The notes under the pieces: model-generated
Seen by the model: only the letters and a program-made list of their open reading frames with translations
What the model was told of the DNA's origin: nothing
Database searches by the model: none
Part shown: piece by piece, positions 1,894-55,381 of the stretch
How the letters are laid out: every line of letters begins with the position of its first letter
Numbering within the stretch: the first letter of the stretch is position 1
Origin: Heterodontus francisci
Taxonomy: Eukaryota
Length of the DNA stretch: 64,000 nucleotides
Direction of reading: 5' to 3'
Assembly: GCF_036365525.1 (NCBI RefSeq)
Contig: NC_090391.1
Coordinates: forward strand, 79,434,085 to 79,498,084
Program-made: the position numbers and the translations under genes

Positions 1894-2113
1894 CAGGGAC
1901 ACCAACAATAGCAAGGATGGGATAATAAATGCATTGCATAATCAACAGTGTGTGATAGATCCCAACTGTTATCACCTGTGAACCATACTTATGAAGTATG
2001 TAAAGAGACCATGATAAACTCTTGCCCATTGTTGTAACATTCCAGTCTAATGTTCTCAGATTCTGATCCATTGTTGTAACATTCCAATCAATTATTCTCA
2101 GATTTTGACCCAT
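1894..2113 (-). CDS. Exon 1 of GPR139/GPR142-like class A GPCR (gene A); N-terminus to start of TM1; exon 2 lies off the left edge
   Basis: ORF 1868..2305(-) contains MGQNLRIIDWNVTT-MDQNLRTLDWNVTT-MGK...IYYPILAIVGVP followed by a phase-1 donor CCTG|GTAAGT at 1894/1893; clearly paralogous to 26894-27074. Confidence 0.85.
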
Positions 2114-2155
2114 TGTTGTAACATTCCAATCTATTGCTCTCGGATTCTGATCTAC
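2030..2155 (-). repeat. 3 x 42-bp tandem repeat in GPCR exon 1 (unit xxQNLRxxDWNVTT)
   Basis: Units 2030-2071, 2072-2113, 2114-2155; ATGs at 2029, 2071 and 2113 are spaced exactly 42 nt apart. Confidence 0.9.
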
Positions 2156-2159
2156 ACTT

Positions 2160-2366
2160 TCCCTCTCTCTGGAGCCACTGCTCCCAGTTGCTGCTGAGGC
2201 TGATGCTCTCACTGACACTATGGGATAACACATGTAAAGGAGCCCCTTATTAATAGAAGAGGGAAACCCTTCAGTGACACAATTAGTGTCTGAGGAGATT
2301 GGCATTAATTACAGTGACTGAACAAACAGGTTCAGTTAACCGCTTTCAATCCAACACCTTTTGTAC
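2160..2366 (-). promoter_or_regulatory. Putative proximal promoter/5'UTR of GPCR gene A
   Basis: TATA-like TATTAATAA (2247-2255), AGGGTTTCCCT, TAATTAA and GTTAACTGAACCTG blocks shared with 26643-26850. Confidence 0.55.
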
Positions 2367-2399
2367 CACAATAAAGAGGAATATTTATCCCTTATATAT

Positions 2400-2690
2400 G
2401 TATAAGGGTTGCTGAGAGAAGGGCTGGTGAAAATAGCAGAGGCACAAGCCAGAATTTTCCAATCCTTCTTGGATATGGGAGTGATGACAGAGGACTGGAG
2501 GGTTACAAATGTAATACCCTGTCGAAAAAAAGCAGAGATTGGATAAACCCTGCATTTACTGAACAATCTAACATTGCTGGTGGGGATGTTTCTAGAAGTC
2601 ACTACCAGGAGAAAAGTTATCATTGCTGGAAAAGAAACATGGGATGACATTTGGCAAGCAGCATGGATATTCGAATGCCAAATCATATCT
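2400..2690 (+). mobile_element. CR1 RT fragment upstream of gene A promoter
   Basis: Degenerate 'IFQSFLDMGVMTEDWRVTNVIP' CR1 motif; inverted homolog at about 26380-26600. Confidence 0.6.
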
Positions 2691-3790
2691 GGCAAATTTC
2701 AACAGCAACTTCTTTTATACAGCACCTGTAATGTAATTAAATATTCCAAGTCTCTTCACAGAGGCATTATAAAACAAAATATGTAGCCGATCCATATAAG
2801 GAGACATTAGGGCAGATGACCAAAAGCTTGGTGAAAGAGGTATAGTTGATGTAGTGTCTTAAAGGAGCAAACAGAGATAGAGAGGTGCAAAATTGACGCG
2901 AGGCTATTGCAGAGCTCAAGACAGAGGCTGCTGAAGGCATGGTCATCAATCGTAGAGCAATGATAATTGGGGATGCTAAGGAGACCAGAATTGTAGGAAT
3001 TAAGATAGTTTGGAGGGTTATAGGCCTTAAGGAGTTTGCAGAGATAGGGAGGAGCCAGGCACAGAGGGATTTTCAAATAAGAACGAGCAGTTTAAAATCT
3101 AGATGTCTTTTAACTGGGAGACAATGTGTACAAGAGGTGCTGGGTGAATGGCATTTAGTGCATGTTCGGACACTGGCAGCAGAGATTTAGATGACCTAAA
3201 GTTTACAGAGGGCAGAAAGTGGGACGCGAACCAGGAAAGTGTTGGAATAACCAAGTCTAAAGATAACGAAGGTATGGATGAGAGTTTCAGCACCAGAAGA
3301 GCTGAGACAGGGGCGGAGTCGTGTGATGTTATGGAAGTGGAAACGTATCGGCTCGGTGATGGTGCAGATACCTGGTTGAAAGCTCATCTCGGAATCTGAT
3401 GTGACACAATAGTTACAAATATTCTGGTTCAGCCTTGGACTTTTGCCAAGCAGAGGGATGGAATCAATGGTGAGAGCGCACAGATTGTAACAGAGACAAA
3501 AGACAATGGTTTCAGTCTTTCCAATATTTTACAGGAGGAAATGCCTGCAAATCCAGTAACGGATGTTGGATAATACACCAGATATTTTAGGGACAGTGGA
3601 GGGGTCGAGGGTGAGGTCGAACTCTGTGTCAGCAATATATATGTGAAAAGTTATATTGTGCTCTCGGATGATGACACCAAGGGCAGCATGTAGATGAGCA
3701 ATAGGGGTGATGGATAGATCCGTCCGGAAAACCAGAGCAGGAAGAGAAGTCATTGCAAGTGATTCTCTGTATATAATTAAATAGATAAGA
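2690..3790 (-). mobile_element. L2-type LINE 3' portion
   Basis: ORF 3196..3387 FHFHNITRLRPCLSSSGAETLIHTFVIFRLGYSN is the typical L2 ORF2 C-terminus; L2-like 3' tail near 2700-2850. Confidence 0.75.
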
Positions 3791-6145: not shown

Positions 6146-6149
6146 GATA

Positions 6150-8250: not shown

Positions 8251-9027
8251 GAGAAAACATGCTTTTCTGAATGAGGCATTTTAATTCCTCGGTTGTACAT
8301 CTACATTAAATTTTGAAAAAGGAAAGCTAGAAACCTACATCGCACTTTAAAATGCTGGCATCCAAGATGGCCACCACAATTTGCATTGAAATACTTCACA
8401 TTCCAGGACATCGAAGTAGAGGCACATGACCTCAAAACTCACATCCAGGACAATGGCTTTAACAGTTGAGGAGATTATCTGGCATCACCCTCAGGACATT
8501 TGAAACCATCTTGGAGCATGTATTAACGGAGACGTAGCTGCAGAGGGGTCATTGGCACAATATAATTTGAGAGAGATTTGGGATTCTTATACTTTGAACC
8601 TCATTAAAGAAAGAAAGGAGCTGAGAGTCCATGTGACAACCCTCCCTCCACCCAGTCTATGTAAACGTGGAGCTTTTTTTTGCCCACAGCAGACATGCTT
8701 TGGGAGCTACCCCATGCAAGACCCATGTGCGCTGTCTCTCTCGCCTTTTCTCTCCAGGTAGCGTTGCAGGTTTTGTAATCTCTCTGTGACTGCAGAACAG
8801 CCATGTAAACCATTGCTACTAATAGAAACCTCGGAGAAAGCCACCAACCATCATTGTCTCCAAGAAAACCGTGATCCAGGCGGACCAGCTGCATGTGCAC
8901 TCTACCAGCCAGAGACTTTGGAACCATGAATTCAGCCAGAAGAAAACTGAATTACCAAACCCCAGAGACTGTATATCAGATTTACTTTTTTTCAGGAATC
9001 GAAACCAAATGAAACGGTTCTTCATCA

Positions 9028-26600: not shown

Positions 26601-26642
26601 AAACATCTCCTCCAGACTGGGTAAATAGTCTACTTTATCGTT

Positions 26643-26850: not shown

Positions 26851-26893
26851 GACAGAACAGAATCTGAGAACAATAGATTGAAGTGTTAGAAAA

Positions 26894-27074
26894 ATGGGTC
26901 CGAATCTGAGAACAAGAGATTGGAATGTTACAACAATGGTCAGGAGTTTCTCCTGGGCCTTTGACTCTCTTTCTGCGTTTTCTGATTGGCTATCATTGGA
27001 TCGCCGAATCTATTTCGTCCTTTTAACGATGCATACGATTTATTATCCCGCCCTTGCTATTGTTGGTGTCCCTG
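26894..27074 (+). CDS. Exon 1 of GPR139/GPR142-like GPCR (gene B)
   Basis: MGPNLRTRDWNVTTM...IYYPALAIVGVP then G|GTAAGT donor (intron starts 27075, phase 1); joins in frame to the acceptor at 43544/43545 giving ...GVP-V-NLLTIGIL (TM1 Asn). Confidence 0.87.
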
Positions 27075-27234
27075 GTAAGTGCCTTTCACAAGTAATTGAT
27101 TCTATAAACTAAGCTTAACTTCAGAACTGTTCTTGTCATTTACTCCATCTTGCTTGTTGATATAATTGTTCCTGGCAACTCTCAGTATCCAGCTGTTAGA
27201 TCTTTATATTTGGTTTAACTGTATTGGTTTCATG

Positions 27235-27700
27235 GCACTTACATTTTGGGAAGACTACATCTATTGTCATCGATTTCCATCACAAATTCTGTTCCCGATC
27301 CATCCACTCCATCTCGCGCCCTGACCAAAGTCTGAGAATGAACCAGACTGTTAAAAACCTCAATGACCCTTTGTTCGAATCGCATAGCCTCTGTATCAGC
27401 AAACCTGCCAACTGCCACCTTCATAATATTGCATGTCTCCACCTTTCCGTCAGCTCATCTGCTGCATAAAGCCTCATACTTGCCTTTGTCAAATCCAGTC
27501 GAATATTCCTCTGTTTTCTGGCCACCATCACAATTAAAAGCCTCCTTAAATGTCAGCTCATCCAGAACAATGCTGCCTAAATCACACCAGGTACAGTTCA
27601 CCCATCACCCCCATGCTCACTAACCTATCCTGGCTCCAGGTCGGGCAATGTTACAATCTTAATATACTCATTCTTGGGTGAAAATCTCTCAATGGCCTCC
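27235..27700 (+). mobile_element. L2 fragment in intron of gene B (shared with gene A)
   Basis: ttttgggaagact...ccctgaccaaagtctgagaatgaaccagactgtt matches the reverse complement of about 1535-1650. Confidence 0.65.
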
Positions 27701-29907: not shown

Positions 29908-30089
29908 GTTCATGGTGTTCTGCTGCACCATTCATATCATTGCCATCATGAGAATACAAGTATTGCCACCAGGAATTCAGAGGGCATCTCAGAAAGAGGA
30001 GGCAGAGAGGATTTTTTTATGGAGACCTTCCACCCAAACTGTCTATCAGAGAATTCCTGATAAGATTCTGGTTCCAAAAGGATCATGCG

Positions 30090-30985
30090 TCCATATAACC
30101 ATACAAATTAGGAGCAGAAGTAGGCTATTCAGCCCATTTAGCTTGCTCTGCCATTTAATGCTATCATATCTGATTTGTTTTCTGTCTTAAATTCCACATT
30201 CCCATTTATCCCCGATAATCTTTCGTTCCCTTTCCAAACAAGAATCTATCTTCCTCAGCTTTAAACATATTCAATTACCCCACCCCCACCACCTTCTGAG
30301 GAAGAACATTCCAAAGTCACACGACCCTCTGAGAGAAAAAACATTCTCCTCGTCTCTGTCCTAAATGGGCGGCACTTAATTTTCATCAGTGCATGCTAGT
30401 TCTGGACTCACCCACAAGAGGAAACATCCCCTCCACATTCACAATTGTCAAAACCGTTCAGGAGCTTACAGACTTCAGTCAAGTCTCCCCTCACTCTTCT
30501 AAGTTCCAATGAAAACATGCCCGACTTGTCCAACATTTCCACATCAAACAACCCACTCATTCCAGGTATCAACCTAGTAAATATCCTCTGAACAGCCTCC
30601 AATGCATATGCATCCTTCCTGAAATAAGGAGACAAAAACTGTACGCAGTATTCTAACTGTTGTCTCACCAACGCCCTGCATAACGGAAGCATAACATTCT
30701 TACTTTTATTTCCCCCCGTAATAAAAGGTCGCATTCTATTAGCCTTCTTTATTAATTGCTAAAACTGCATACTAACCTTTTGTGACTCATGCACTAGAAC
30801 TCCTGGATCCCTCTGCACCTCGGAATTCTGCAATCACTCCCCCTTTAAGAAATACTCTGTTTTTTTTATTCTTCCTGCCAAAGTGAACAACTTCGCATTT
30901 TCCCACATTATAATCCATCTGCCAGATTTCTACCCACTCACTCAACCGACCTCTAACAGTCTGCAACCTCCTTATGTCGCTTCCC
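30090..30985 (-). mobile_element. CR1 LINE 3' fragment
   Basis: ORFs 30408..30734 and 30787..30990 (LEYCVQF, RIFTRLIPGM). Confidence 0.8.
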
Positions 30986-33789
30986 ACCATGGATCCCCCA
31001 ATTCACCACCATTGCACCCATCTGAGATGCACCATCACAGCGTCTCCTTGGTCATAATCGCGCAATAATAAACCCCCACAAAACCCTTTATATTGAAATA
31101 TTTATCCAACAACATTTTCAATTATACAAACAAAACTGAACTATTTACTCTTGTGTATTCCCTCAGTGCCTGTTTTGCGGGTTCCCTCGACTTGCCTAGC
31201 GCTTCTACACAGTGCTTACCTAGTGGCTGCAGCATGGCTGGTGGAAGACAGACGACTTGCACTGGGGTAGACTGCAGATGGACTTGCAGGACGCTCTCGA
31301 GCAACTCTGGGCTTTGAGGGCTCGGATTCAGACTGCACAACATCGGCATGTGAAGCAGCAGCCTGCACTGGCTGATGGGCAACAGCAAGAACACTGGTGG
31401 AATAGCAGTGAAGGGAGAACAAATACTGACATCCTCAGAGAGGACAGCAGGTTTATGCTCCACGGAGCCACTGCCAGTAACATGGGGCAACACACCAGCA
31501 ATCCTAGTAATCTACTTGGTAACAGATTGCTCGACAGCTGTGAGAGCCTGCAAAAACCTTTGAGCACTGAGTTCCACAGCCATGATGGCAGCAGTCTGAT
31601 CCTGCATGGCAGCAAGCATGGATCTCATGACCTCAGTCTGAGCTTCCACTGTCGCACTGAAACGTTGGGTGTCTGCCGCCTGTGCTGCAGTGGAAGCTGA
31701 GACGATGGTTACCAGACGCTGTATCATGGCTGGGTTCGTGAGTGCTGTGATCGAGTTAGTGACCAATTCCACAGCAGAAAGAATGGGCTTCATGAGCCAC
31801 ATCCTCAGCGACATTGGAATTGGAATCCTCCATATTCCTTGATGGTGACAACAGACAGTTTGACAGGCCTGTCAATGGATAAAGTGTCTCAATGCACAAG
31901 TCCATCAGCATTCTCCTGTCTGATGCTCCAACAATATTCTCAGCTGAGTCCTGTGTATTATAACTCGTTCGCGACCTTGCCCTCCTGTGAGTTGACACAC
32001 GAGCTATCATTTAACCTGGCCTGGCTGCAGCCCACGCGTTTTTTGGTGACACACCAGGTGCAGATTCTGACTCAAGACCAGCCTCTAAGATAAACGCAGT
32101 GTCAGCATTTGAATTGGTAGCTGTGAGCAACAGTCCAAGTGATGGGGTGTCACCATCAGTGCTGTTCTGATTCTCTCTCTCGGTCTCCCGGAGCTGATGT
32201 GACTGGGAAGCTGGCAGTTTTGGGTTATCATTGGGAAGTATAAAATCAGAAGGGGATGGTTGGGGTGAGGAATTGGGGTGGGATGGAATGCTGAACGTCC
32301 ATGAGCCCACTATCTGCGACCTGTCCATCATCTCAGAGGGCAGGATGAGGGAGAGGTTGTGAGACCATAGCATCATCCTGAATGCTCTCATTAATGTCGG
32401 ATGCTGGATGCTCTGTCACAGCTGGTCACATGATGTGGAGAACCATCTCCTCCATCAGGCTCCGGGGATGAAGGTAAGCCGAGATAGTGTTGCACTGTGT
32501 TTGCGATGATTTGCCTGCCATAGCTGAATAGCTAGAAGTATGTGGGCGCAGTGAAAGGTGTGTGCCCTTTAGTTAAGCAAATCTGCTGTCCGAACCTGGT
32601 CTGGCCTTCATGTGACTCCAGATGCACAGCAATGTACTTGACTCTTAACTGTCCTGCGAAATGGCCGAGCAAGGCATGGAATTGTCAAGTGAAAGCAGGG
32701 ATTGGCAACAAATGCTGGCTTCGACAACGACACCCATATCCTATGGATTTCATTTACAAAGGTCTGGGAATGGTGTTTCAGAGTTTTTCACAAGGGTCGT
32801 TGTCTCGAAGACATTTCTGGTCATGATAATGTGCAGCTGCATGTTCACATATTTAAAGAACTGTTACTTATAAATTGTAATCTTCTACCCTTGACTGGTT
32901 TACTCTTTGGTTCGAACATAAGAATGGTGAGAAATAAGGAGACAACACTCAAAGGTCAAATTCAATGCCAATGACTTTACTAGATTCGGCAGGTATACAA
33001 ATGTTAAAAACAAAACAAAACATTAGTCAGCAATACACCTGTTGACAAGACACCCATTAGTCACAAATAGGTTGCAGGGAGTCATACATAGATAAGCAAC
33101 CAGTAGGCGGTCACTTCCCTGCTGATTGTTCAGTAGCTGACCAAACTATGTCCATGTTTGGAACAAGGTTGTAACGAGTTCAGGAGCTGAGTGGCCCTGA
33201 CGGATGATAAACTGAGCGTCAGCGAGCAGATAATTGCTAAGCAAGTGCTGCTTGATAGCACTGTTGACGACCACTTCCATCACTTACTGATGACTGAGAG
33301 TCGACAGATAGAACATTAACCTGGGCCTCTAGGTTACTAGTCTAGTAACATTACCGCGATGCCACTGCCTGCTCTGCATTTTCCAGTGCACGTGAAGTTT
33401 GTCCAAAGTTCTAACTTGACATCAAAGTGAAACATAACCTTAAAGTCAGTCTTTATTGGTCATTACTAATTTTTAAGACTTTTTTGCCTTTTTGTTAAAC
33501 ATTCCATCGACAACGTGTTTTTTTTCACGAGTAATTCTGTTAATCTGTAATAAAAACAGCTTACATCTGTTAACAGGTGACCTAACCTCTGATAAGGCTT
33601 TCTGGCATTTACGATGCATGCTGGTCAGATTCAGTTGATTCTCTGCACACCTGTACAAAGTGACACAAGGGCAATTGGGGATAAGGAACAAATGCTCGCC
33701 TTGTCGGCGATACCTACATCCCATGAGCAGGATCAAGATAACGATAGCGTCCTCTATTTCATTTAAATTTATTGATTCTCCTAGGTTGA

Positions 33790-35815
33790 ATATCCCCACA
33801 AATCTCAAACAGGAATCGATCAGTATGACAGACTGCAGAAACCAGACCATTCCATCCATCCGATCCGGGATGGAAATGCATTCTCTCCTGTCACAGGTCA
33901 GACAGCAGAAACCAGGCCATTGCATCCATTCCATTCGGAATAGAAAACCATTCTCATCTGTCACAGGTCAGACCGCCGAGACCAGGCAATTCCATCCATC
34001 AGATCCAGGAGAGTAAACATACTCAACTGTCAAAGGTCATACAGCAGAGACCAGGCCATTCCATACATCCGATTCGGGAGAGAAAATCATTCTCACCTGC
34101 CACAGCTCAGACATCAGAGACCAGGTGATTGCATCCATCCAAACCAGGATATACGAACATTCAAATTAGGATCAGCAGTAGTCCAATGACCCCTCGATCC
34201 TGCTGCACCATTCAATAAGTTCATGGCTGAACTGTTTGCTCCACAGCGTCACCTGCCACTGATAATCGTGCACTCCCGTGCTTAACGAGAATCCATTTGT
34301 CTCTGCCTTAAAAATATTCAAACACTCTGCTTCCACTGCCTTTTGAGTGAAATCCAAAGACTCAACGACCCTCTGAGAGAAAAAGAAAAATCTCCTCAAC
34401 GTTGTCTTAAATGGAGATCCCTTATTTTTAAACTGTGACTCCTAGTTTGAGATTCTCCCACAAGCAAAAACACCGTTTCCACATCCACCCTGTCAATACC
34501 TCTCAGGATCTTATATGTTTCAGTCATGTCGCCTCTTACTATTCCAAATTCCAGCGGATACAAGCCTAGCCTGTCCAATCTTTTCCCGTAAGACTGGCCA
34601 CCAATTCCAGGTATTAGTCTAGTAAACCTTATCTGTACTGCCTCCAACGCATTTACATCCTTCCTTAAATGAGGAGACCAGTGTTGTACACAGTAATCCA
34701 GATGTGGTCTCACCAATGCCCTGTGTAGCCGAAGCATAACCTCCCTCCTTATGCATTCAATTCACCTCACGATAAACAATAACATTTTATTAGCTTTCCT
34801 AATTATGTGCTGTACCTGCACACTAATTATTTGCGATTCCTGCACTAGAACACCAAGATCCCTGTCCATCTCAGAGCTCTGCAATCTTTCAGCATTTAGA
34901 TAATATGGTTCTTTGACATTCTTCCTACCAAAGTGGACATTTTTGCACTTTCCCATATTATGCTCCATTTGCCAGTTCTGTGCCCACTCATTAACCTATC
35001 TATGTCTCTTTGCAGCCACCTTGTGTCTTTTCCACAATGTACTTTATTCCCTATCTTTGTGTCATCTGCAAATTTAACAACCATACATTTGGCCCCTTCA
35101 TCTAAGTAATTTATATAAATCGTAAAAAGTTGATGCCCCAGCACAGACCCCCATGGCACACCACTCGTTATATCTTTCCAACCAGAAAATGACCTATTTA
35201 TGCCTACTCTCTTTTAACTGTTAGCTACCCAAAATTCTATCCATGGCAATATGTTACCCCCTGCAACATGACCTTTTCCCCCCATGCAGTAGCATTTGAT
35301 GTGGCACCTTTTCAAATGCGTTCTGGAAAGCTGAGGACAATACATCACAGGTTCCACTTTATCCACAGCACATGTAACACTCAGCTTTCACATAACCATG
35401 TTGAGTCTGCGTGATAAGCTTGAATTTTCCTAAATACCCTTCGCTTACATATTTAATAATACCTTCTGACATTTTCCCCAAGGAAGATGTTAAGCTACCT
35501 GGCCTTTAGGTTCCTGCTTTCTGCCTCCATCCCTTTTTGAATAAAGGAGCTACATTCACTATTTTCCAATCTAAAGGAACCTTCCCCGAATATAAGTAAT
35601 TTTGGAAAATTAAAACCAACGCATAAATCATTCTCCCCTGACACAGACCAGGCAGCAGATTCCAGGTCATTCCATCCATTCAATCCGGGGACAGAAAACG
35701 CATTCTCACCTGTTACAGTTCAGACAGCAGATACCAGGCCATTCCATCCATCAGATCCTGTATCGAAGACCATTCTCACCTGTCACAGGTCAGAAAGCAG
35801 AGACCAGACCACTGA
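33790..35815 (+). repeat. ~70-bp minisatellite (about 8 units) split by a CR1 insertion
   Basis: Unit ttctcacctgtcacaggtcagacagcagagaccaggccattccatccatccgatccgggatagaaaacca; units at 33881, 33951, 34020, 34090 and again at about 35630-35815. Confidence 0.85.
34155..35625 (-). mobile_element. CR1 LINE RT and 3' end
   Basis: ORFs 34896..35159 (GSVLG, KFADDTK), 34762..34968 and 34396..34737. Confidence 0.85.
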
Positions 35816-36750
35816 CTCCTGACTTGTGCCTTGCTGATGGTGGACACGATTTGGGGAGTCAGGAGGTGAGTTACTCGCCACAGTATTCCTTGCGTCTGAC
35901 TTGCTCGTGTAGCCAAAGTATTTAATGGCTACTCCAGTTCAGTTTCTGGTTAAGGGTAACCCCCAGGATCTTGATAGTGGGGGATTCAGCGATAGTAATG
36001 CCTTTGAATGTCAAGGGGACATGGTTAGATTCTCTCTTGCTGGAGTTGCTCATTGCCTGGTACTTTTGTGGTGCGAATATTACTGGACGGTTATCAAACA
36101 AACCTGCATATTGTACAGGTCTTGTTGCATTTCTACACGGACTGATGAAGCAGCAGAGGATGGTTGAGCCCAGGGTACTACCCTGAGGAACTCCTGCAGC
36201 GATGTCCTGGAGCTGAGATGATTGAACTGCAACAACCACAAACATCTTTCTTTGTGCTCGGACCGACACAAACCGTTGCAGAGTTTTCCCCTTGATTCCC
36301 ATTGACTCCAGTTTTGCTCGGGCTCCTTCATGCCGTACTCAGTCCCAACAGTAACCCCTAGGGAACTCCAATAAAAACCTTCCTGTAGGCCGGAAAAGAT
36401 CCATTAACCAATACTTTTTGTTTCCTGTCAGTTTTCCAATCCCTTTTATTCCATGAGCTATATCTTTGTTCACATGTCTGTTGTGTGGCACTGTATCAAA
36501 TGCCTTTTGGAAGTCCAGGTACACCACATCAACTGCATTGCCTTCATAAACCCACTCTCTTTCCTCCTAAAAAAAAAAACTCTTGCAAGTTACTTAAAAT
36601 GGTTTTCCCTAAAGAATTCCATACTGTCTTTCCTTAGGTATCCCTCATTTGGCCATGCGACTATTCATTATTTCACAGATTATTGTTTCAATAAATTTCC
36701 CCTCTACCAATGTTAAACTGACTGACTGCAGTTCCTGGGCTTATCTTGTT
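35815..36750 (-). mobile_element. Adjacent LINE fragments (second CR1-group family, then CR1)
   Basis: ORF 35922..36302 AGVPQGSTLG; ORF 36339..36527 VYLDFQKAFDTVPH. Confidence 0.75.
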
Positions 36751-37399
36751 TTACGACTGACCGGTCAAGTATATATATATCCAATCAAATTAGACTGTTC
36801 TCATTGCGTGAGCAATACACTGTTAAATCATTCCCGGCGTTCTGCAGATCGCCTAACATATCACTTTAAACTTTCTAAATTAAAGACATCGAAAGCCGAA
36901 TTGAACTATCTGGCAAACTCCGAATGAGGCAAACCAAACCAGATATCTTTAGACCAACAAATTAACTGTTTATCAGAAAAACTAAACTCTTAAACACTAC
37001 TAACATATAAACAGCATTAGAAAACAGCTTTCTTTGTGATTTGCACTTCCCGATTATTAATTCTCTGATTAAAGTCCACTTGCAGTATTCCAGGTTCCAA
37101 TGAGGAAAGAAAAATGACCAACATCCAAAACTTCAACTCCTCCTTCATCCAGCGAGGACATCTACAGATTAACAAATTGCAAATACTTTGATGAATTAAT
37201 TTTGCTTTCGAATATTGAGGGGTGAAAAAGTGATCAGTCTAAAATTCACCTTCCTTCAGTTTAAATTATCAGTGATCTCTGTTCCTTTCATGCTCATGCT
37301 GTCTGTCTCTGTGTCTCTCAAAAGCTGGTTTTTCAGCTAGTTTCAAAAATTAATCGTCATATTTTATCTCGATTCTACAGTCTCTGAATGGCTGTTGCA

Positions 37400-38950
37400 A
37401 AACCTACTCGGAAACAGGCTATTTTAGATCTAGTAATATGCAATGTGGTCGGATTAATAAGAAATGTCATAATTATCGTCCTCCAGGGGGTAGCAGTCAC
37501 AACATGGTAGAAATTCTAATGCAGTTTGAGGACGAGCAATTTGGGTTTCACACCAGTGTCCCCAACTTAAACAAGAGCAATTACAGAGGTATGAAGAAAG
37601 AGTTGTCTAAAACAGGCTGGGAAAATAGACTAAGGGGAAGATAAGTGGATGAGAAGTGGCAGACATTTTACCAGATATGTCATAACGCTCAGCAAAAAAT
37701 AATCAAGGTCAAAAAGAAGACTCGATGAGAAGGATGAACCACCCGTGGTTAACAAAGGCGGTCAAGGAGAGTATCCCATCAAAAACTGAGGCATACAAAG
37801 TGGCAACAACTAGTGGTACGCAAGAGGATTGGGAATCTTTTAAGGAACCAGCAGCGGATGCCTAAAAAGCTAATTAAGACGGAGAAAATTGATTATGAAA
37901 GCAAATTGGCAATAAATATAAAAAACAAACAACAAGAGCTTCTTTATAAGAAGAAAGGGAGTCGCTAAAGTGAGCGTGGGACCCTTGGAGGATGTGACTG
38001 GTGAATTGATAATGGGGAACAGGGAAATGGCAGAATATTTAAACCAATATTTTGCATTGGAATTGACGATGGGGGACACTACAAACACCCCACAGATATC
38101 AGATAAGCAAAGAGCTAATGGGAGTAAAGATCTTGTAACAGTCTCTTTCACGACGGCAGAGTATTTGACGAACTAATTGGACTAAAGGCAAACAAGTCGC
38201 CAGGACCTGATGTGCTTCATCCAAGGGTTTTAAAGGAAGGAACTGCAATAAAAGAGGAGGCAGTGGTCGAAATATTCCAGAACTCACTGGATTCCAGGAG
38301 GGTCCCAGCGGATTGGAAAACCGCTAATGTGACGCGCCTGTTCAAGAAGGGAGGGAGACAAAAAGCAGGAAACTATAGGCCAGTCAGCCGAACATCGGTC
38401 ATTGGGAAAATGCTAGAGTTCATTATTAAGGAAGAAATTGCAGACATTTAGAAAAGCTTAAAGCAATCAAACAGAGTCAACATGGTTTGAGAAAGGGAAA
38501 TCATGTTTGACACTTTTGTTAGAGTGGTTTTTGGATATAACAAGCAGAATTTATAAAGGGAACCAGGAGATGTAGTGTATTTGGATTTGCAGAAGGCATC
38601 CGATAAGTTGCCACAGAAAAGATTATTGCACAAGAGAGGAACTCACGGTATTGGGCGTCATATATTAGCATGAACTGAGGATTTGTTAACGCACAGTCGA
38701 CAGAGAGTGGGGATTAATGGGTCTTTTTCAAGGAGGAAAGACGTAAGTAGTGGAGGGCAGCAAGGATCAGTCCTAAGGTCTCAATTATTCACTATTTGTA
38801 TTAATGACTTGGAGGAGGGGTCAGAGTGTAAGACATCCAAATTTGCTGATGATACAAAAACAGGTGGGAGGGCATCTTGTGATGCGGACATAAGGAATTT
38901 GCAAGGGGATATAGTTAGGTAGAGTGAGTGGGCAAAAACTTGACAGATGC
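37400..38950 (+). mobile_element. CR1 LINE endonuclease-end/RT fragment
   Basis: ORFs 38212..38451 (VPADWKTANVT...GNYRPVS) and 38683..38922 (KFADDTK). Confidence 0.85.
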
Positions 38951-39059
38951 TTTAGAAAGCTTTCCAGAACATACTCGAGGAACTCCTTCCCCTTTCTGAC
39001 CTCTACACTACTGCTCCTCCAGTCTACATTCGGATAATTAAAGTCTTCCTTGATAACTA

Positions 39060-40480
39060 CTCCATAATCCCTGCATCTCTCTGTAAAACAGACACAACAA
39101 ATATCTTTTCATGAACACTTTTATTCAACGACACGTTGAATTCACACTTGTGTATTCCATAGTGCCTGCATTAAGGGTTCCCTCAAATTGCCTAGTGATC
39201 CTGCACGGTGCTACCCCAGTGGCTGCAGAATGGTTGGTGTAAGGCTGCTGACTTTCACTGAGGGAGGTTGTAGATGGTCTTGCATGAATCCCTCGAGCAG
39301 CTCTGGGTCTTGACGTCTCGCATTCGGACGACATTAGTTCCCCATGGTCAGCAGCAGCCTGAGCTGGTTTATGGGTATCAGCAAAAACACTGGTGGAGTA
39401 TCAGTGAAGGAAGACAAATTCTGCCAGCCTAAGAGCGGACAGCAGGTTCGTGCTCCACGGAGCCACTGCCTGTCCCACGGAGCGATACCTCAGAAATCCG
39501 ATTAATCCTCTGGATCTCTGAGTGCTGGACTGCGGTGAGAGCCTTAAAACCCCTTTGACAACTGAGATCCACTGCCATAATGGAAGCACTAAGATCCTGC
39601 ATGGCCGCAAGCATGGATCTTATGACCTCGGTCTGACATTCCACTGCAACACCGAGACGTTGAGTGTCTGCCACCTGTGCTGCAGTGGAAACTGCGACAA
39701 TGATCACCAGACGCTGTATCAAGGCTGGGTCCGCTAGTGCTGTCATGGACTTAGTGACCACTTCCACTAGGGAAAGAATGGGCTTCAAGCTCTGTGCAAT
39801 GTCCTGTGCCCTGTTGGAGTCGGACTCCTCTAAGTTCCTAAACAGTGACAACAGACTGTCTGACAGGACGGTCAATGGACAAAGTATCTCAGTGGACATG
39901 TCTATCAGCATTTTCCTGTCTGTTGCCCCATTAAATTTCTCATGTTAAGTGAGCTGGCACATGCAATCACCACGTGCAGGTCCCGACTCTATTCCAACCT
40001 CGACGGTACACGCAGTGTAAATATTTTCGCAGGTGGTTGTGAGTCCCGGACCTGCTAATGGATATTCACCATCAGTGCTGTACTGCTGCTCTCTCTTTCT
40101 CTCTCTCTCTCTGTCCCTGAGAGCTGCTGTGACTGGGAAGCTGGCACTTTTAGGTTATTATTGGGAAGTATATCATCAGAAGGGGAGGATTGGGGTGAGG
40201 TTTTGGGGATTGGATGGAAAGCAGGAGATCCAGGTACCGCCAACTGCAGCTTGTACATCATATCAGACAGCAAGATGAGGGGAAGCTAGGAGTTAAGAGA
40301 CGTCATAAGGAAAGAACGTTGCATCACCCTTGAAGCTACCAGCCAGCTTCACACACAGTTAGGATCCTGTTAAGCTTCCAGTCACCCAGCTTACAGTGCG
40401 GGTCACCCTGGGCGGCATGTATAATTCATGGCAATGAGGAGGCAGCAGGAAGTTTTGTGTGTCACCAGGAACAGGCACGG
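39060..40480 (-). mobile_element. Copy of the Harbinger-associated second-ORF region
   Basis: ORF 39429..39911 is similar to 31512..31814(-) and 62852..63067(+); identity as a Myb/SANT partner is inferred only. Confidence 0.5.
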
Positions 40481-41169
40481 GCAGATCATGAATCACCAAC
40501 CCTAGGCCTGAAAAGAAGGACAAATCTGATTTTTCCTGTTTCTCACCTTTTTCATTGTTTTCCATTTTCTCTTTCACCCTGTCTCACACTCTCACTTTTT
40601 CAGTTTCGGTCTGGCTCATAGAATCAGAGACAATGCAGCATAGAAGGAGGCTATTCGGCCCATTGTGTCAGTGTTGTCGCTTTGAAATATTATCTAATCA
40701 ATTCTGCTCCCCTGCTCTTTCCCCAGACTCCTGCATTTTTATCCTTTTCAAGTTTTTGCCAAATGCACTTTTGCAAGATATTTTTGAATCTGTTTCCACC
40801 ATATAGCCTGACAATGAATTCTAAACCCAATAACTCACAGCGTAAGAAAATTTTCCGCATTTCCCCTCAGTGTCTTTGCCAATTAACATCAAACTGTGTC
40901 TTAATATTGCACTTTCTGACACTGGAAACCTCTTCACCTTAATTACACAATCAAGACTCTTCGTGATTTTGAATTTCTATATTTAATCTCCCTTTATCCG
41001 TCACTGCTCCACAGAGGACAAAGAATAAAACAACAGAAAATGTCGGAAATAGTACTGATGATAGGTCACATATCTGAAACAATAACTCTGTTTAAGTCAC
41101 CACAGATGCTGCCAGAACTGCTGAGTATTTCCAGCACTTTCTGTTTTACCTTATGTATTTTCAGTGCGA

Positions 41170-42050
41170 ATTAAAATTTTAGAAGATTGAAGCCATTGTT
41201 TTCAGTCCCCATTGCACACACCATTAACAGCTACCGACTTTATCCCTCTCCCTGACTACTGTGTGAGACTAAAGCAGACTGTTTACAAACTTGGTGTCAT
41301 ATTTGACCCCAAGATGATCTTCCGACCACGTATATGCACTTTCACTAAAATGGCCTACCCCCACCTCAGTTACATCGCCTGACTTTGTTTCTCTCGCAGA
41401 TCCTCTGCTTAAAACCCTCATTCAAGTATTCGTTACCACCAAGACGTCTGCAGTACTGAAAGTGACCACCTCTCCTGGTGCTAGTGCCGATACTGATGAG
41501 CTGCCAGTTCTCTGATTGGCCAGCAGCTGTTGGAGGTGGGATCCTAATCTTGAAAGGGACTTGGATCCCAGCATAAGACATTTAGACAAAAAAAATGCAC
41601 GATCGCTTTGGGGCGAGGTGGGGGTGGGTGGCACGAAAAGGCCGAGGTTCTGTTAACCCCGCCTGTCTGGCCCGCTGCTAAGAGCCACGCCTGCAACACA
41701 TGTCCAGCCCCATATCACGGAAATAGCCTCCTGTCCCACAACACACTAACATACCTATATTAATCTTATATTGGCCTCTTGTGCATCCCTGATTTTAATC
41801 TCGTCACCACTGGTGGTAGTACCTTCAGTTGTATGGGCCCGAAGCTCTGTAATACCATCTCCGCGCCTCTCCAGCTAACTTTATGTCTTTAAAACACTCC
41901 TTGAAGCATATTTCTTTGATCCAGCTTTTGGTCATCTTATCTACAATCTCCTTATGTAACTCGGTATCTTATTTTGTTATATAATGCGCCTATGAAACAT
42001 CTTGGGACTTTTTACGACATTAAAGGTGCTGTAGAAATACAATTTGTGGT
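41170..42050 (+). mobile_element. L2 fragment interrupted by a non-autonomous DNA-transposon-like insert (about 41460-41740)
   Basis: LGVIFDP motif and L2 tail aaacactccttgaag...tttgatccagcttttggtca. Confidence 0.55.
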
Positions 42051-43544
42051 TATTGTTTCTGCCCAGTCCATCACCCTGTTTGTGCCCTCATGAATTCTAT
42101 TACTATCTTGCTCGCTCATCACTCGACTTCCACACTTCATGAGTTCTGAAAATTGCAACATTGTGAACTGTAGCCTGCTCCCTCGGTAACCTGTGGCCCA
42201 TGGATGGGCCCTGGCAGCAAAGATGATTCTCCCTGAAACACCCCCAAACTAAGCGAGTACCATCACCCATTTTCCAGGGGTTACCACACTGGCACTGGCA
42301 ATACCAGCCAACTCACCTGGGGTATGGGACTCCAAGGCTGCTCCTGTCCCAGGTCTGGTGTAATAGCAACAGTAGTCCCTGCTCCCTGGCTATCCCCTGC
42401 TGCAACACTTGATTTACGTCGGGTCCGGGACTCTAACAATGGGCCTGGTCCCAGACCTGTTGTGTTACCGGCACTGGCTCCGATCAGCTGACTGTGCGTG
42501 GTGTCATCGCCAGACTTACCTATGTGTCTAGGGCACGATGGGTCAAGGGTGTAATACTGGCAGTTCCACTGCTCTCAGTGGCGTTGCCGATACTAGTGAG
42601 CAGCTGGCCATGATTGTTCAGCAGCTTTGGCAGATGGGATTCCCATCCTTTAAGGGATGTGGACCACGACACCAGGCAGTTAATTGCTGAAGAGCCACAC
42701 GGAGTGTAGGCTCTGAATTTCTATGACAGGGTACGCTCATATTTTCTGCCCGCCGTCAGGAACCCCACTGGCTCCACTAAATTCAGCTCCCTGTCTCCAG
42801 CAGCAATTCCTGTCACTGGGAAAATAATTCACTGCATACTGAATACAACAACAAATGTGCAATTGTCATTCTAAACTCCTTGAAACTGCTGTTTTCACTC
42901 CCAACCTGGAGTAAAATATCCTGACAAATTCCCTTGTTTAGCTTTATCTTCGTGACGATTGAGATTATTTGTTTCATTGATTTTTCAGTGGACTCATTCC
43001 CAATTATTGCTTTGAAATAATTGAATTCCGTTCTGCCCACCACAGTTGAGGGAATCTCTCAGGCAGTCCAACATTTAATTTCCTGCTCAAGAGCGATGTG
43101 CAACAGACGTTGCAAATCTGAAATAAAAACCGAAAATGCTGGATATATTCATCAGGTCTGGCAGCACCTGTGGAGAGAGAAACACAGTTAATGTTTCAGG
43201 TCAATGACCCTTCATCAGAACTGGGAGAGATTAGAAATGGATCAGATTTTAAACCAGACAGGGACGTGAGGGAAGGGAAGGATTATGATTAACATTGATT
43301 TTAACATTTCAGTCTCATCCGGAACAGTTTCAGTTCCTGTATTCCATCCCCGTGTGTAATTTTCATTTAATCTCTCCTGCCTTCCACCCTATTACAACAC
43401 TTCTCTTGTTCTTTCAGCTTCGATCATTTCAGTACATCACTGGATACAGGAACATACTTTAAATCTCAATAAGGCCTCAAGCAAACTGGTAACTTTGATC
43501 CTAGACTGATGTATAATTTCTCTATTTATTCCCCTTCCTTACAG

Positions 43545-44428
43545 TTAACTTGCTGACGATTGGGATCTTATCTCGGGGAAAATGCGGGCTCTCCAAATGT
43601 GTCACTCGCTACCTGGTAGCCATGGCAGCGGCGGATCCACTGGTCATTTTCCTGGATGTGATATTGAGACACATTCCCATTGTTTATCCGGAACAGTTTC
43701 AGTTCCTGTATTCCATCCCCGTGTGTAATATTCACGCCATCCTGCTTTACGCAGCTACAGACTGTTCTGTCTGGTTCACCGTCAATTTCACTTTCGATCG
43801 ATTTGTGGCGATTTGTTGCCAGAAGCTGAAAAGGAAATATTGCAGCGAGAAAACGGCGGCTGTGGTTCTGGGAACAGTGATTGTGCTGAGCTGTTTAAAG
43901 AACATCTTCTGGTATTTTATGTTCACAGGTCGGTATTTGCTGTGGAACATCCCATGGTTTTGTGATGCAGCAGAGCATGCTCGGAATTCTCGTGTCTGGG
44001 GAACGATCGAGTTCCTCCATTACATTCTAACACCGTTTGTCCCATTTATGGTGATTCTACTGCTCAATGCTGTCACCGTCAGACACATTTTAGAGAGCAG
44101 TAGAGGACGCAGGAGACTCCGGGATCATAGCAGTGGGGACAGACGCAAAGACCCAGAGATGGATAGCCGAAGAAAATCCATCATTTTACTGTTAATTATC
44201 TCGGCAAATTTCATTCTGTTATGGGCAGTGTTAATGGTGTTTTCGGTATGGATCCGGATGTGGTATTTAGGCTATCAGTCTATACTTCTACCGGCGTTTC
44301 TGCGGGAATTGGGCTTCATGCTGCAGCTGCTGAGCTGCTGCACAAACACTGCGTTTTATGTCGTGACCCAGACTCAGTTCAGAGTGCAGTTGAAGAATGT
44401 GTTGAAATACCCCTTTACTAATTTTTAA
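43545..44428 (+). CDS. Exon 2 of GPR139/GPR142-like class A GPCR (gene B); TM1 end to C-terminus; spliced product about 354 aa
   Basis: Polypyrimidine acceptor ttccccttccttacag at 43544; open 292-codon frame with TM2 YLVAMAAAD, C3.25 (PVCN), TM3 SVWFTVNFTFDRFVAIC (DRF), TM5 ILTPFVPF, ICL3 DPEMDSRRKS, TM7 MLQLLSCCTNTAFY, helix 8 TQTQFR. Family assignment is by motif recognition, not by database search. Confidence 0.92.
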
Positions 44429-45554: not shown

Positions 45555-45633
<79 letters not shown>

Positions 45634-53545: not shown

Positions 53546-53584
53546 GGTTTTCTGTCCACAGCAGTAAATGAATGAGATGTAGCT

Positions 53585-53925
53585 GGTTATAAATGAGTAT
53601 AAAGGTTCATAAAGGATAATAAAGGGTTAACAAGGGTTATAAAGGATTATAAACAGTTACAAACGATTATACAACCATAAAGGATTATAAAGTGCTATAA
53701 ATAATTAAAAAGGATAATAAACTGTTGAAAAGCTTATGGAGGATTCTACAAGTTACAAGGGATTATATAGTGCTCCAAAGGATTAAACTGAGTTACAAAT
53801 CGTCATAGCGTATTAAAAAGGGTTCAAACGGGTGTAACGGTTCAGAATGATTATAAATGGTAACAACAATTTATAAAGGGTTCTGAGTAATATAAAGAGA
53901 TTTTCAAGATTACAAACGATTATGC
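53585..53925 (+). repeat. AT-rich ~10-11-bp degenerate repeat (aaaggattat)
   Basis: aaaggataat aaagggttaa caagggttat aaaggattat aaacagttac aaacgattat... Confidence 0.75.
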
Positions 53926-53929
53926 AAAA

Positions 53930-54493
53930 TTCTGCCTGTCGTTTCCCTGTCACCATGAGAACAGACCTGGCCCCCACACACTCTTTACCAAGGGAACAGA
54001 CGACACCCCCATTCTCCAGTCGCAATGGGTAACGAGCTCCGCCTTCATTTCCTCGCCACCATGGGAAACATGGATCGCTCCCATTCCCCCGTCATCATGG
54101 GGCAGAGAACCTGCCCCCAATCTTCCGTCACCTTGGCTTCAGGCCCCAGCCCTCGGCTGTCACTGTCGCGACAGACCCTGTCCCCGTTCAGTGAACATAG
54201 CGACAGGCTCAGCCACACCCCCCCATCCCCGTTCTCTCACCATAGCGACAAGCCCCACCCCCGCTTTGTCACCATAGCTTCAGCTCGCTCCTCCGCGCAG
54301 TCAACATAGTGACAGGTCCCACACCGCTCTGTCTCGATTTCGGCAGGACCGTCCCCGCTATGTCACCACAGTGACAGGTCCGACACCCGCTCTGTCTCGA
54401 GAGGCAATCCCCGTCCGCCGCTCTGTCTGCAGAGTGTCAGGCCCCGCCCCTGATCTGTATCCATAGTGACAGCCTCCCCCCCCCCCCCCCCCC
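53930..54493 (+). repeat. GC-rich ~31-33-bp repeat with an internal palindrome, ending in a poly-C run
   Basis: ccgctctgtc-type motif recurs at 54261, 54293, 54324, 54355, 54387, 54418; consensus ctgtcac-cata-gtgacag. Confidence 0.75.
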
Positions 54494-54522
54494 AGCTGCT
54501 GGAAATAGTGATTCAGTGCCTC

Positions 54523-55381
54523 TCATCTCTGAATGAGTTTACCAATTGCAGGAAAGGAATATTTCAGCACATTCTTCAACTGCTCTTTGAACTGAGTCTG
54601 GGTCACGGAGCAAATCGCAGTGTTTGTGCAGCAACTCAGGAGCTGCAACATGAAACCCGATTCCTGCAGAAACACAGCTAAATAAGCAGACACAGACCCC
54701 AAATGCTCCATCCGGTTCCATATCTAGTTCACCATGAACAGGGTCCATAACAGAATGATTCCCCGAGAGAACTAACAGTACAATGATGGATTTCCTTCGA
54801 TTCTCCATCTCTGGGTCTCTGCGACTCTCCCCGCTGCTGTGAGCCCAGAGTCTTCTGCGTCCTCTGCGGTTCACTAAAATGTGCCTGACTGTGAGAGCGT
54901 TGAGCAGCAGAATCACCACAAACGGGAGCCCCGGGTTTAGAATGTAATGGAGGAACTCGATTGTTCCCCAGAAACGAGATTCTGCAACATCCTCAGTTGC
55001 ATTACAAAACCAGGGGATGTTCCCCAGCCGACATTGACTTGTTAACATAAAATACCAGTAGATGTTATTTAAACAGCTCATCACAGTCACTGTTCCCAGC
55101 ACCACAGCAGCCGTTTTCTCGCTGCAATATTTACTTTTCAAATTCTGGCAATGAATGGCCACAAATCAATCAAAGGTGAAAGTGACGGTGAACCAAACAG
55201 AACAGTCTGTGGCTGCATTAAGCAGGATGGCGTGGATATTACACACGGGAATGAACAACAGGAACTGAAGCAGTTCCCAAAGAAGAATGGCAATGTGTCT
55301 CAATATCAGGTCGAGGACAATGACCATTAGATCCGCCACTGATATGGCCACCAGGTCGCGAGTGACACATTTGGTGAGACC
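54523..55381 (-). pseudogene. Pseudogenised exon 2 of a GPR139-like GPCR (copy C)
   Basis: ORFs 55166..55471, 54539..55162 and 54523..54711 are paralogous to gene B exon 2; TGA replaces the Arg of DRF (55166-55168); 2-nt deletion in TM6 near 54757; a further TAG near 54725; acceptor and first ~14 codons deleted. Confidence 0.9.

Follow-up and report, generated by a model that had tools for sequence, protein, structure and literature searches.

The characterised receptor closest in sequence to the genes described here is GPR139 (PDB 7vug and 9m42 for the human protein), which has a paralogue, GPR142. In the available part of PMC7318219, GPR139 is a CNS receptor encoded by a two-exon gene and 70% identical between zebrafish and human, and GPR142 is a receptor of the pancreas and gut. 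A polar site for L-Trp and L-Phe that includes R6.51 and N7.39 has been modelled in GPR139 (PMC5430874, PMC8807744), and the GPR139 mutant N271A loses Trp/Phe potency (PMC5430874). GPR139-like subtypes from non-mammalian vertebrates are already published, and the available portions of the two reports concerned (PMC6504862, PMC5207463) do not treat an expansion in sharks. Cartilaginous fishes are described as having a paucity of GPCRs (PMC8455134, in part) and, in the accessible text of PMC10869828, only 20–62 canonical olfactory receptor genes, even though their olfactory neurons are numerous.

Organisation of the Locus

Re-examination of the window, that is, the whole 64-kb stretch of horn shark (Heterodontus francisci) DNA that was analysed, located all three receptor copies reported in a preliminary description, between positions 1894 and 55381: exon 1 of copy A, a two-exon copy B, and a pseudogene, copy C (Table 1). 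The tblastn matches of A exon 1 to B exon 1 (E 3e-32) and of C to B (Table 1) indicate that the copies are not chance resemblances. The arrangement had been called tandem; the copies are clustered, but they are inverted (A−, B+, C−) and not head-to-tail. Homology between A and B continues beyond exon 1, so the duplication took in the flanks and the start of the intron, and 59% of the window is matched by a homologous copy elsewhere within it. The window contains no neighbouring gene. A, B, and C were made by segmental duplication together with their flanks, here in inverted orientation.

Table 1. Features of the receptor locus, in window coordinates.
Feature	Position	Strand	Remarks
A/B inverted homology blocks around exon 1	254..2552 (to 26456-28363)	-	68-76% identity
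Copy A exon 1 (N-terminal ectodomain and first half of TM1)	1894..2305	-	open frame 2305-1895; tblastn against B
Three in-frame 42-bp (14-aa) repeat units of A	2026..2152	-	
First repeat unit of B	26852..26893	+	in-frame TGA at 26879
B coding exon 1 (one NVT repeat unit, variable ectodomain, first half of TM1)	26894..27074	+	60 codons and one base
B intron, repeat-rich	27075..43544	+	16,470 bp, GT-AG, phase 1
Exact duplicate of B exon-2 bases 43686-43729 (ECL1/TM3 start), inside B intron	43317..43360	+	44 bp
B exon 2 (rest of TM1 to TM7, helix 8, shortened tail)	43545..44428	+	
Copy C pseudogene, exon-2 remnant	54523..55381	-	82% identical to B over 855 nt; tblastn E 1.5e-95
C intron, inverted paralogue of distal B intron (38948-43254)	55387..63832	-	blocks of 68-75% identity

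Copy A has a phase-1 GT donor after base 1894 and candidate starts at 2305, 2233, 2113, 2071, and 2029; each of its repeat units contains the N-glycosylation sequon NVT followed by an in-frame ATG. The phase-1 junction in TM1, between GVP and VN, that had been claimed for both A and B is complete in B, whereas in A the donor side only is seen. Within the window, tblastn and low-stringency blastn located neither exon 2 of A, which would sit beyond the left edge, nor exon 1 of C. A and C were also considered as two halves of one gene, which was rejected because on the minus strand exon 2 of C would come before exon 1 of A. Copy C lacks its splice acceptor and first codons, and its frame is broken by a TGA at the arginine of the DRF motif (55168-55166), by another stop near 54726, and by a frameshift of 2 bp near 54758.

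The spliced product of B is 354 aa, starting at the ATG at 26894, the same Met at which P0001, the closest database protein, begins. With the TGA in the first repeat unit, the upstream in-frame ATGs at 26714 and 26774 give short frames only. A longer N terminus from the upstream ATGs common to A and B was rejected, as pN (0.25) and pS (0.28) over 48 codons indicate no coding constraint; the start is consequently set within the repeats, where its position is uncertain.

The open frame bears out the earlier description of B as intact, but the stop in the first repeat, two private residues, L92P (TM2) and T141N (each in 0 of 120 relatives), and a 2-bp deletion in the tail do not. The deletion leads to an early end 14 residues past the QxxFR motif, compared with a median of 19 in the 119 rows where the motif was found, only two of which, B included, are as short. 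A very short C-tail, also part of the preliminary description, is nevertheless common across the family. The terminal branch of B is 0.041 and that of its sister 0.008. These lesions do not make B a certain pseudogene: over 164 conserved columns it has four rare residues where the median is two, a load that is unexceptional since 27% of rows are equally high.

Family Size and Turnover

B matches 2,342 protein clusters at E ≤ 1e-5 among 5,219 candidates; of the representatives of 50% clusters, 116 have E ≤ 1e-30. The best 120 of the 2,342, which were those listed, are all shark proteins, 118 named 'probable GPR139' and two 'capa receptor-like'. At least 85 of these 120 clusters are from the horn shark, with 214 member sequences (isoforms and loci pooled) on scaffolds of 50 distinct lengths, 36 of them under 15 Mb. 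A named skate member nests among shark rows in trees. The family exon 1 is missing from 28 of the 120 closest models, so that many models may be broken or mis-modelled; in the 92 with a real exon 1, the glycosylated N-terminal repeat is present zero to five times. A deeper set of 53 rows was also assembled, with 49 deep representatives carrying no species assignment.

The birth-and-death pattern is seen in pseudogene C, in a 15-member 90% cluster of recent duplicates surrounding P0001, and in deep subfamilies common to several species. Copies arise via segmental duplication and are lost by stops, frameshifts, and splice loss. The family is almost certainly a very large, elasmobranch-expanded, and poorly characterised class A GPCR clade, in agreement with the lineage-expanded family of the GPR139/142 superfamily that had been proposed. 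The shark expansion is undescribed in the literature searched, although bioRxiv 10.1101/2025.06.08.657570 may label the family in its tandem-cluster figure or supplementary material. No match to GPR139 was present in 24 whale-shark supplement files (which hold one GPR142 orthogroup line), eight catshark-cartilage files, or two of three skate files.

Relationship to GPR139 and Other Receptors

Exon 2 of B scores 60.9 bits against Pfam 7tm_1 (cut-off 30.5), the only other match at E ≤ 0.1 being a weak one to Srx (E 2.6e-4, below cut-off); the olfactory, vomeronasal, and taste receptor families of Pfam gave none at this threshold. Srw and Srx also occur as minority shares within neighbouring Atlas clusters. 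The microswitches D2.50, D/E-R3.50, W6.48, N7.49, and Y7.53 (receptor position numbers being counted from alignments of B and the family profiles to GPR139) are present in 118–120 of the 120 closest clusters and 49–52 of the 53 deep rows, and P6.50 and P7.50 are mostly absent. B, the two family profiles, and the two single-copy relatives described below all had GPR139 as their top PDB match, with 36 bits for B exon 2 and 57 and 130 bits for the profiles, where the next family reached 37 and 89; chemokine and related receptors lay well below. By sequence, the family is not a member of the canonical OR, TAAR, V1R, V2R, T1R, or T2R groups, GPR139 being its closest characterised receptor.

The family shares the two-exon gene structure (seen in B) with GPR139, and B's subfamily shares an aromatic 3.33, H5.42, W6.48, and a non-proline 7.50. 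Among the 120 closest clusters the aromatic floor of the GPR139 site is kept (Y/F3.33 in 116, H5.42 in 115, and W6.48 in 120), although 3.33 and 5.42 vary widely across the 53 deep rows. This retention, the RefSeq name 'probable G-protein coupled receptor 139', and the best solved-structure match would favour B as the shark orthologue of GPR139 or GPR142, or the family as L-Trp/L-Phe sensors using the GPR139 site. Either is highly improbable. B is only about 25% (24–25%) identical to human GPR139, far from the zebrafish-human value, and two other non-mammalian paralogues outscore human GPR139 with 97–99 bits. The polar residues of the site are hydrophobic in B's subfamily: position 6.51 is Leu in 67 and Phe in 50 of the 120 closest, with Arg not among the four commonest residues, position 7.39 is Phe in 107, Tyr in seven, and Leu in five, and E3.32 is likewise replaced. 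GPR139-style amino-acid sensing, which the preliminary description had entertained, is thus unsupported. Among the outcomes that the same description had named in advance as counting against it were few copies and a one-to-one GPR139 orthologue; what was found is a multi-copy family, with the horn-shark clusters counted above, at low identity to GPR139. The family further differs from the single-copy, conserved GPR139 in its fast evolution, new charged pocket residues, mostly lost P6.50, and a canonical C3.25-ECL2 disulfide and ECL2 hairpin.

In trees built without GPR139 or GPR142 orthologue sequences, the expanded clade has support of 94/89, and two groups of 'probable GPR139' genes lie outside it. 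The first (P0249) is a gnathostome paralogue conserved in coelacanth, catshark, zebra shark, sawshark, sturgeon, teleosts, amphibians, squamates, and turtles; it is ~30% identical to B, with common ICL1 and helix-8 motifs, and forms a separate clade (100/100) containing its own shark orthologues; the shark counterpart of this paralogue is therefore not the expanded family. P0265 falls with the turtle paralogue and not in the expanded clade. Two models of this group are fused with TMEM183A names. The group probably falls within the published 'GPR210A/B' or 'Orphan 139-like' subtypes.

The second (P0247) is a single-copy gene of amphibians and sturgeon (Pleurodeles, Xenopus, caecilian, Acipenser), with one cluster per named species, and is placed as sister of the expanded clade, weakly (82/64). 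Its ICL3-TM6 motif (20 of 21) is shared with 47 of 53 family rows and with none of 52 of the other paralogue, R2.61 is common to gene and family, and its median family-profile score is higher (215 versus 194 bits). On the other hand, its mean identity to the family is 0.285 versus 0.299 for the other paralogue, with 14 of 53 rows closer to it, and it retains K6.51, N7.39, and P6.50, unlike the family. This gene is likely to be the bony-vertebrate co-orthologue of the expanded family. As judged from these alignments and trees, the family is probably a paralogue lineage separate from GPR139 and GPR142, and it is distinct from the conserved single-copy gnathostome paralogue that sharks also retain.

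Sequence Variation and Structural Models

Pocket identity was compared with that of other TM positions using 25 positions taken from two GPR139 papers, an earlier list with two added sites and without the rim sites giving the same outcome. Among the 53 deep members the pocket is strongly divergent (0.24 versus 0.52, p = 2.6e-7), whereas in the single-copy controls it is the more conserved part (0.93 versus 0.82 in 20 amphibian orthologues; 0.72 versus 0.67 in 52 paralogue orthologues). The 120 closest clusters show no such excess variation in the pocket (0.75 versus 0.80, p = 0.09), a pattern unlike the odorant-receptor style. Extracellular loops are less conserved than intracellular loops and helix 8 in both family sets (0.55 versus 0.78 in the 120 closest; 0.29 versus 0.50 in the 53 deep), compared with 0.80 versus 0.66 and 0.48 versus 0.53 in the controls. 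The variable ectodomains noted earlier are borne out, as is a repertoire-like character of the family, and the pocket variation is probably the signature of a ligand-diversified repertoire.

Between B and C, dN/dS is 1.26 in 54 loop codons and 0.43 in the other 222; the loop value comes from one pair with one pseudogene member, and an excess over 1 is not demonstrated. The nonsynonymous rate differs between loop and non-loop codons (Fisher p = 4e-7) and the synonymous rate does not (p = 0.84). In B's young subfamily a deep pocket with the charged residues D2.57, R2.61, H3.28, and D3.37 is kept. Hypervariability is seen there in the N-terminal helix and ECL3, on one face of the extended TM1, and at every other residue of the ECL2 hairpin. 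A kept deep pocket beneath a varied outer surface hints at peptide-sized ligands for these closest paralogues.

A mostly non-adaptive amplification, in which duplication-prone, repeat-rich regions generate redundant or decaying copies and loop variation reflects relaxed constraint, would fit the extent of internal duplication in the window, the state of the local copies (one dead, one with private lesions, and one incomplete in the window), the small size of most scaffolds that bear horn-shark matches, and the tolerance of most GPCRs to loop change. We consider it improbable, as the deep subfamilies, which occur in skate and in several shark orders, are old, 49–52 of 53 deep rows keep D2.50, R3.50, the disulfide, and Y7.53, deep-set variation is specifically concentrated in the pocket, and non-loop dN/dS is low even with a pseudogene in the pair.

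An AlphaFold2 model of P0001 (96% identical to B), built on a deeper alignment than a first, weaker model (pLDDT 63.5), has a pLDDT of 89.5 and predicts a 7TM bundle, helix 8, an ECL2 β-hairpin, and an N-terminal helix. It resembles many class A structures (Z 26–29, r.m.s. deviation 2–4 Å). Foldseek ranked GPR139 1–2 with the weaker model, whereas VIA-align with the better model did not place GPR139 in the best 50 rows listed, where peptide receptors tie (Z 26.5–29). For these models, scores of fold similarity do not tell one class A family from another.

Discussion

The explanation we favour, which includes a chemosensory role for the family, is given a probability of roughly 0.4 as a whole. 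Ligand-pocket positions differ strongly between old subfamilies with a common intracellular face, and each receptor would bind a different extracellular ligand, probably a peptide or another polar molecule, that touches the outer surface and the charged pocket. All members may signal through one common G protein, Gq/11 by analogy with GPR139. The most likely single role, as a guess, would be chemosensory: sparse cells in exposed epithelia of the olfactory organ, mouth, gill, or skin would use the repertoire to detect cues from the environment or from conspecifics. The family resembles OR, TAAR, V1R, and T2R, MRGPR and FPR, and nematode srw/srx receptors in copy number, clusters, pseudogenes, variable pocket, and conserved signalling face, and differs from them in its independent origin from the GPR139/142 branch and a coding intron in TM1. 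The srw chemoreceptors themselves derive from FMRFamide-type peptide receptors.

Counting against this explanation are the pocket pattern of the 120 closest clusters, the limits of the loop dN/dS value, the models without exon 1, and the terminal branch and private lesions of B. The CNS and pancreas/gut sites of GPR139 and GPR142 mean that the ancestry is not sensory-epithelial, and the catshark 'brain & olfactory epithelium' top-50 list contains no GPCR in the available part of PMC11979771, which is weak evidence, as V2Rs are also missing from it. It is doubtful that the proposal holds in its full form, namely that an extra class A chemoreceptor repertoire evolved independently in elasmobranchs from peptide receptors of the GPR139 branch, outnumbers all their canonical olfactory receptor genes together, is expressed in sparse sensory cells, and is hidden under the automatic name 'probable GPR139'.

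The hypervariable outer surface that, in members of B's young subfamily, covers a conserved deep pocket, the variable number of glycosylated repeats, and the rapid turnover would also suit immune or barrier sensing, with leukocyte or epithelial receptors for microbial, parasite, or damage-derived peptides and an outer surface shaped by an arms race with ligands or pathogen binders. The MRGPR and formyl-peptide receptor expansions of mammals are an analogy. The reported absence of MAS1 and its relatives from cartilaginous fishes (PMC8455134, in the part available) would leave this niche open. We hold this to be the next most likely role, yet unlikely; no immune gene lies within the window, and chemokine and related receptors fall well below GPR139 in profile searches.

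An internal ligand repertoire, that is, endogenous peptides or metabolites of the gut, brain, or reproductive organs, would continue the GPR139/GPR142 and MIP/FMRFamide-receptor ancestry. The superfamily and the protostome receptors for MIP, FMRFamide, proctolin, and myosuppressin go back to one origin (from the portion available of PMC8514136), the ECL2 hairpin and disulfide resemble peptide receptors, and expression beyond the nose is frequent for the OR and V2R genes of catshark in the part of PMC11979771 at hand. We give this explanation little credence, because hundreds of copies, divergent pockets, and frequent pseudogenes fit few endogenous ligands badly, and the single-copy relatives show the opposite, a near-invariant pocket.

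At least 85 horn-shark clusters among the best 120 matches stand against the 20–62 published olfactory receptor genes. If sensory, the family would explain how sharks combine large olfactory organs with few known receptors, and if the extra chemoreceptor repertoire is real, it would overturn the view of sharks smelling with a few dozen receptors. If the role is instead immune or at barriers, the oldest jawed-vertebrate lineage would possess a large recognition system that has gone unnoticed. For the ancestral ligand, the single-copy amphibian gene provides a tractable model.

Organization of the Receptor Copies

Three copies of one receptor family were located in the window, as the preliminary description had proposed: exon 1 of copy A, the two-exon gene B, and the pseudogene C. 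The intron of B spans 16,470 bp, is phase 1, and lies inside TM1. Inverted homology is present between A and B around exon 1, and between C and ∼5.5 kb of B comprising distal intron and exon 2, which shows that segmental duplication, with alternating orientations, gave rise to the copies. The frame of C is broken by two stop codons, one of them in place of the DRF arginine, and by a 2-bp frameshift. B had been considered intact and is indeed a complete two-exon gene, but its tail has a 2-bp deletion (both bases are retained in C), beyond which a tail like that of P0001, the closest database protein, resumes in another frame; moreover, the first N-terminal repeat contains a stop codon, and L92P and T141N are seen in none of 120 relatives. 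A 44-bp segment of exon 2 also recurs in the intron as a recent local templated duplication.

Features of the window
Feature	Position	Strand	Remarks
A, exon 1	open frame 2305–1895; GT donor after 1894	−	
B, complete two-exon gene	ATG 26894; stop at 44428	+	354 aa
C, exon-2 remnant	55381–54523	−	no splice acceptor
42-bp coding repeat (14-aa unit)	2026–2152 (A); 26852–26935 (B)		N-glycan site and alternative start codon per unit
Exact 44-bp copy of B exon-2 bases 43686–43729	43317–43360		∼185 bp upstream of splice acceptor
Long degenerate purine-rich/GT microsatellite tract	44455–45632		starts <30 bp from B stop codon
First AATAAA downstream of B	not before 46371		
Degenerate LINE-like remnant	2375–2644; ∼26380–26620	+; −	antisense, just upstream of exon 1 of A and of B
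Minisatellite, period 25 bp	52534–53542; 51765–51931		
Minisatellite, period 62 bp	14002–14498; 14832–15022		
Minisatellite, period ∼70 bp	33829–34140; 35625–35811		
∼340-bp interspersed element	9025–9372; 18101–18445; 46063–46381; 57283–57630; 61033–61378		five copies, 70–92% identical
∼0.8–1.3-kb element	31077–32357; 38948–40281; 62725–63832		three copies, 72–79% identical
Degenerate retroelement-like sequence	4375–5476; 49476–50833		two inverted copies, 72–77%
LINE RT remnants	48400–49128; 28677–29150; 59529–59993		RVT_1 match

The surrounding sequence is repeat-rich vertebrate DNA, 59% of the window having a homologous copy elsewhere within it, and three of the nine non-receptor frames scanned contain reverse-transcriptase remnants. 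The LINE-like remnant, by its translation a putative CR1/L2-type ORF2 piece, precedes exon 1 of A as well as that of B and thus predates their duplication; it may sit in the promoter region. The ∼340-bp element is probably a SINE. No Pfam match was obtained at E ≤ 0.01 for the 150–175-aa open frames of the ∼0.8–1.3-kb element, or in the frames scanned of the retroelement-like copies.

Family Size and Membership

Exon 2 of B matches Pfam 7tm_1. A homologue search returned 2,342 proteins at E ≤ 1e-5 among 5,219 candidates, and the best 120 of these are all shark proteins (85 Heterodontus francisci, 26 Heptranchias, three Stegostoma, three Rhincodon, two Pristiophorus, and one Mustelus), the top match being 97% identical to B. 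The lineage-expanded family is therefore larger than first proposed. The 85 H. francisci clusters among these 120 comprise 214 member sequences, with isoforms and loci pooled, on 50 scaffolds of distinct length; the family exon 1 is absent from 28 of the 120 closest models. In a 50%-clustered library, 716 proteins were matched at E ≤ 0.001, 157 at 1e-10, and 116 at 1e-30. One skate protein is a family member. Three Heptranchias models (P0002, P0003, and P0110; 462–493 aa) obtain much higher scores than their identity would predict, which suggests internal duplication or the merging of gene models.

Relationship to GPR139

The sequences are public. RefSeq lists family proteins as "probable G-protein coupled receptor 139", a name given automatically, which mislabels the family as GPR139. 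Human GPR139 is the best solved-structure match of B (36 bits) and heads the solved structures matched by the family profiles (57 bits with one; 130 bits with the other, next family 89). However, B is only ∼25% identical to GPR139, compared with 70% between the zebrafish and human receptors (PMC7318219, available part), and two other genes are nearer to B (97–99 bits). Assignment of family members to GPR139 is not supported.

The first of these, represented by coelacanth P0249, is a conserved gnathostome gene also present in catshark, zebra shark, sawshark, sturgeon, teleosts, amphibians, squamates, and turtles; the named species in the 120 of 145 rows listed include neither mammals nor birds. 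This GPR139-like gene, to which P0249, P0271, P0274, and P0278 belong, is single-copy, and two models carry TMEM183A isoform names, which suggests that it adjoins TMEM183A. The second, the P0247 group, consists of amphibian and sturgeon proteins in 21 of 25 rows, the other four being family members. In all 21 (P0247 and P0389–P0408) D2.50 is replaced by Asn, and the pocket is near-invariant; this gene is a candidate co-orthologue of the shark family. A 41-row tree, rooted on three invertebrate-looking proteins (one long-branched) with true GPR139 and GPR142 absent, gave three clades, with support of 94/89 for the expanded family and 100/100 for either single-copy gene, and placed the amphibian/sturgeon gene as a weak sister of the expanded family (82/64). 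A common ICL3–TM6 motif and profile scores agree with this placement, whereas mean identity disagrees. GPR139-like subtypes of non-mammals have been named GPR210A/B (PMC6504862, whose accessible text lacks the word "shark") and "Orphan 139-like" (PMC5207463, in part).

Receptor Anatomy and Ligand Pocket

A confident model of P0001, built from an 86-row alignment (pLDDT 89.5), comprises an N-terminal helix (19–28), a long TM1 (35–70), an ECL2 β-hairpin (187–202), and helix 8; in structural comparison, peptide-type class A receptors match it about equally well. The N terminus of B's subfamily contains a 14-aa repeat, each unit contributing an NVT sequon and an in-frame Met of its own. A has three units and B one intact unit, and copy number ranges from 0 to 5 among the 92 models that have a genuine exon 1; with occurrences in only 2 of the 53 rows of the deep set, the repeat is nearly confined to this subfamily.

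Putative agonist-binding residues of GPR139 were taken from the available parts of PMC5430874 and PMC8807744, with positions counted by hand from alignments of B and the family profile to solved GPR139 structures. B's subfamily shares the aromatic residue at 3.33, His5.42, and Trp6.48 with that site, but has hydrophobic residues in place of Arg6.51, Asn7.39, and Glu3.32; it also has new charged residues, nearly invariant, at 2.57, 2.61, 3.28, and 3.37 (119–120 of 120). A Trp/Phe sensor of the GPR139 type is very unlikely.

Pattern of Variation

The family is old, with ongoing turnover, and its members differ at ligand-binding sites and agree at G-protein-binding sites. Four sets were compared in one alignment by mean pairwise identity: the 120 closest clusters; 53 deep rows, which may include broken models (65 of 150 representatives spanning TM1–TM7, minus six of other clades and ten split matches, plus four named rows); 20 amphibian orthologues; and 52 other-paralogue orthologues from the 120 listed P0249-group rows. 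The pocket, 25 positions drawn solely from the two papers on the agonist site, was less conserved than other TM positions in the deep set (0.24 versus 0.52, p = 2.6e-7); the closest set showed no clear difference (0.75 versus 0.80, p = 0.09), p values being descriptive for related rows. The controls gave 0.93 versus 0.82 (amphibian) and 0.72 versus 0.67 (other paralogue). Extracellular loops compared with intracellular loops plus helix 8 gave 0.29 versus 0.50 (deep) and 0.55 versus 0.78 (closest), against 0.80 versus 0.66 (amphibian) and 0.48 versus 0.53 (other paralogue). Because the amphibian control and the closest set are equally identical overall (0.77 and 0.76), the inversion is not a distance effect. 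Variation in the TM1 extension runs along one face (period ∼3.9), and in the ECL2 hairpin it alternates; when B is compared with C, the loops are enriched in nonsynonymous change (dN/dS 1.26 versus 0.43 elsewhere). Judged from sequence, the variation is repertoire-like, and a largely non-adaptive amplification appears improbable.

Proposed Role

Such a family would recognize many ligands and signal through one downstream pathway, which, as a guess from GPR139, may be Gq/11. The old subfamilies appear to have rebuilt the deep pocket and the youngest wave to have varied the outer surface, as would be expected if the ligands are peptides or larger. Our guess is a chemosensory role in exposed epithelia (probability about 40%), ahead of immune or barrier sensing, which is doubtful; internal sensing of peptides or metabolites is as improbable as non-adaptive amplification. 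The number of members does not by itself identify the tissue, since in catshark even the genes of canonical chemoreceptor families are frequently expressed in places other than the nose (PMC11979771, in part).

No description of the shark expansion was found in the open-access literature, to which the search extended, and prior notice in subscription journals is possible. It is not mentioned in the accessible portions of a GPR139 review (PMC12208981), the whale shark and zebra shark genome papers (PMC8455134 and PMC10620051), or a vertebrate chemoreceptor survey (PMC10869828), or in the text, without figure or supplements, of a preprint on elasmobranch tandem clusters (10.1101/2025.06.08.657570). 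Expanded GPCR repertoires as such are already known; what appears to be new is a GPR139-branch expansion of such size in the cartilaginous lineage, for which the accessible part of that survey reports 20–62 olfactory receptor genes.
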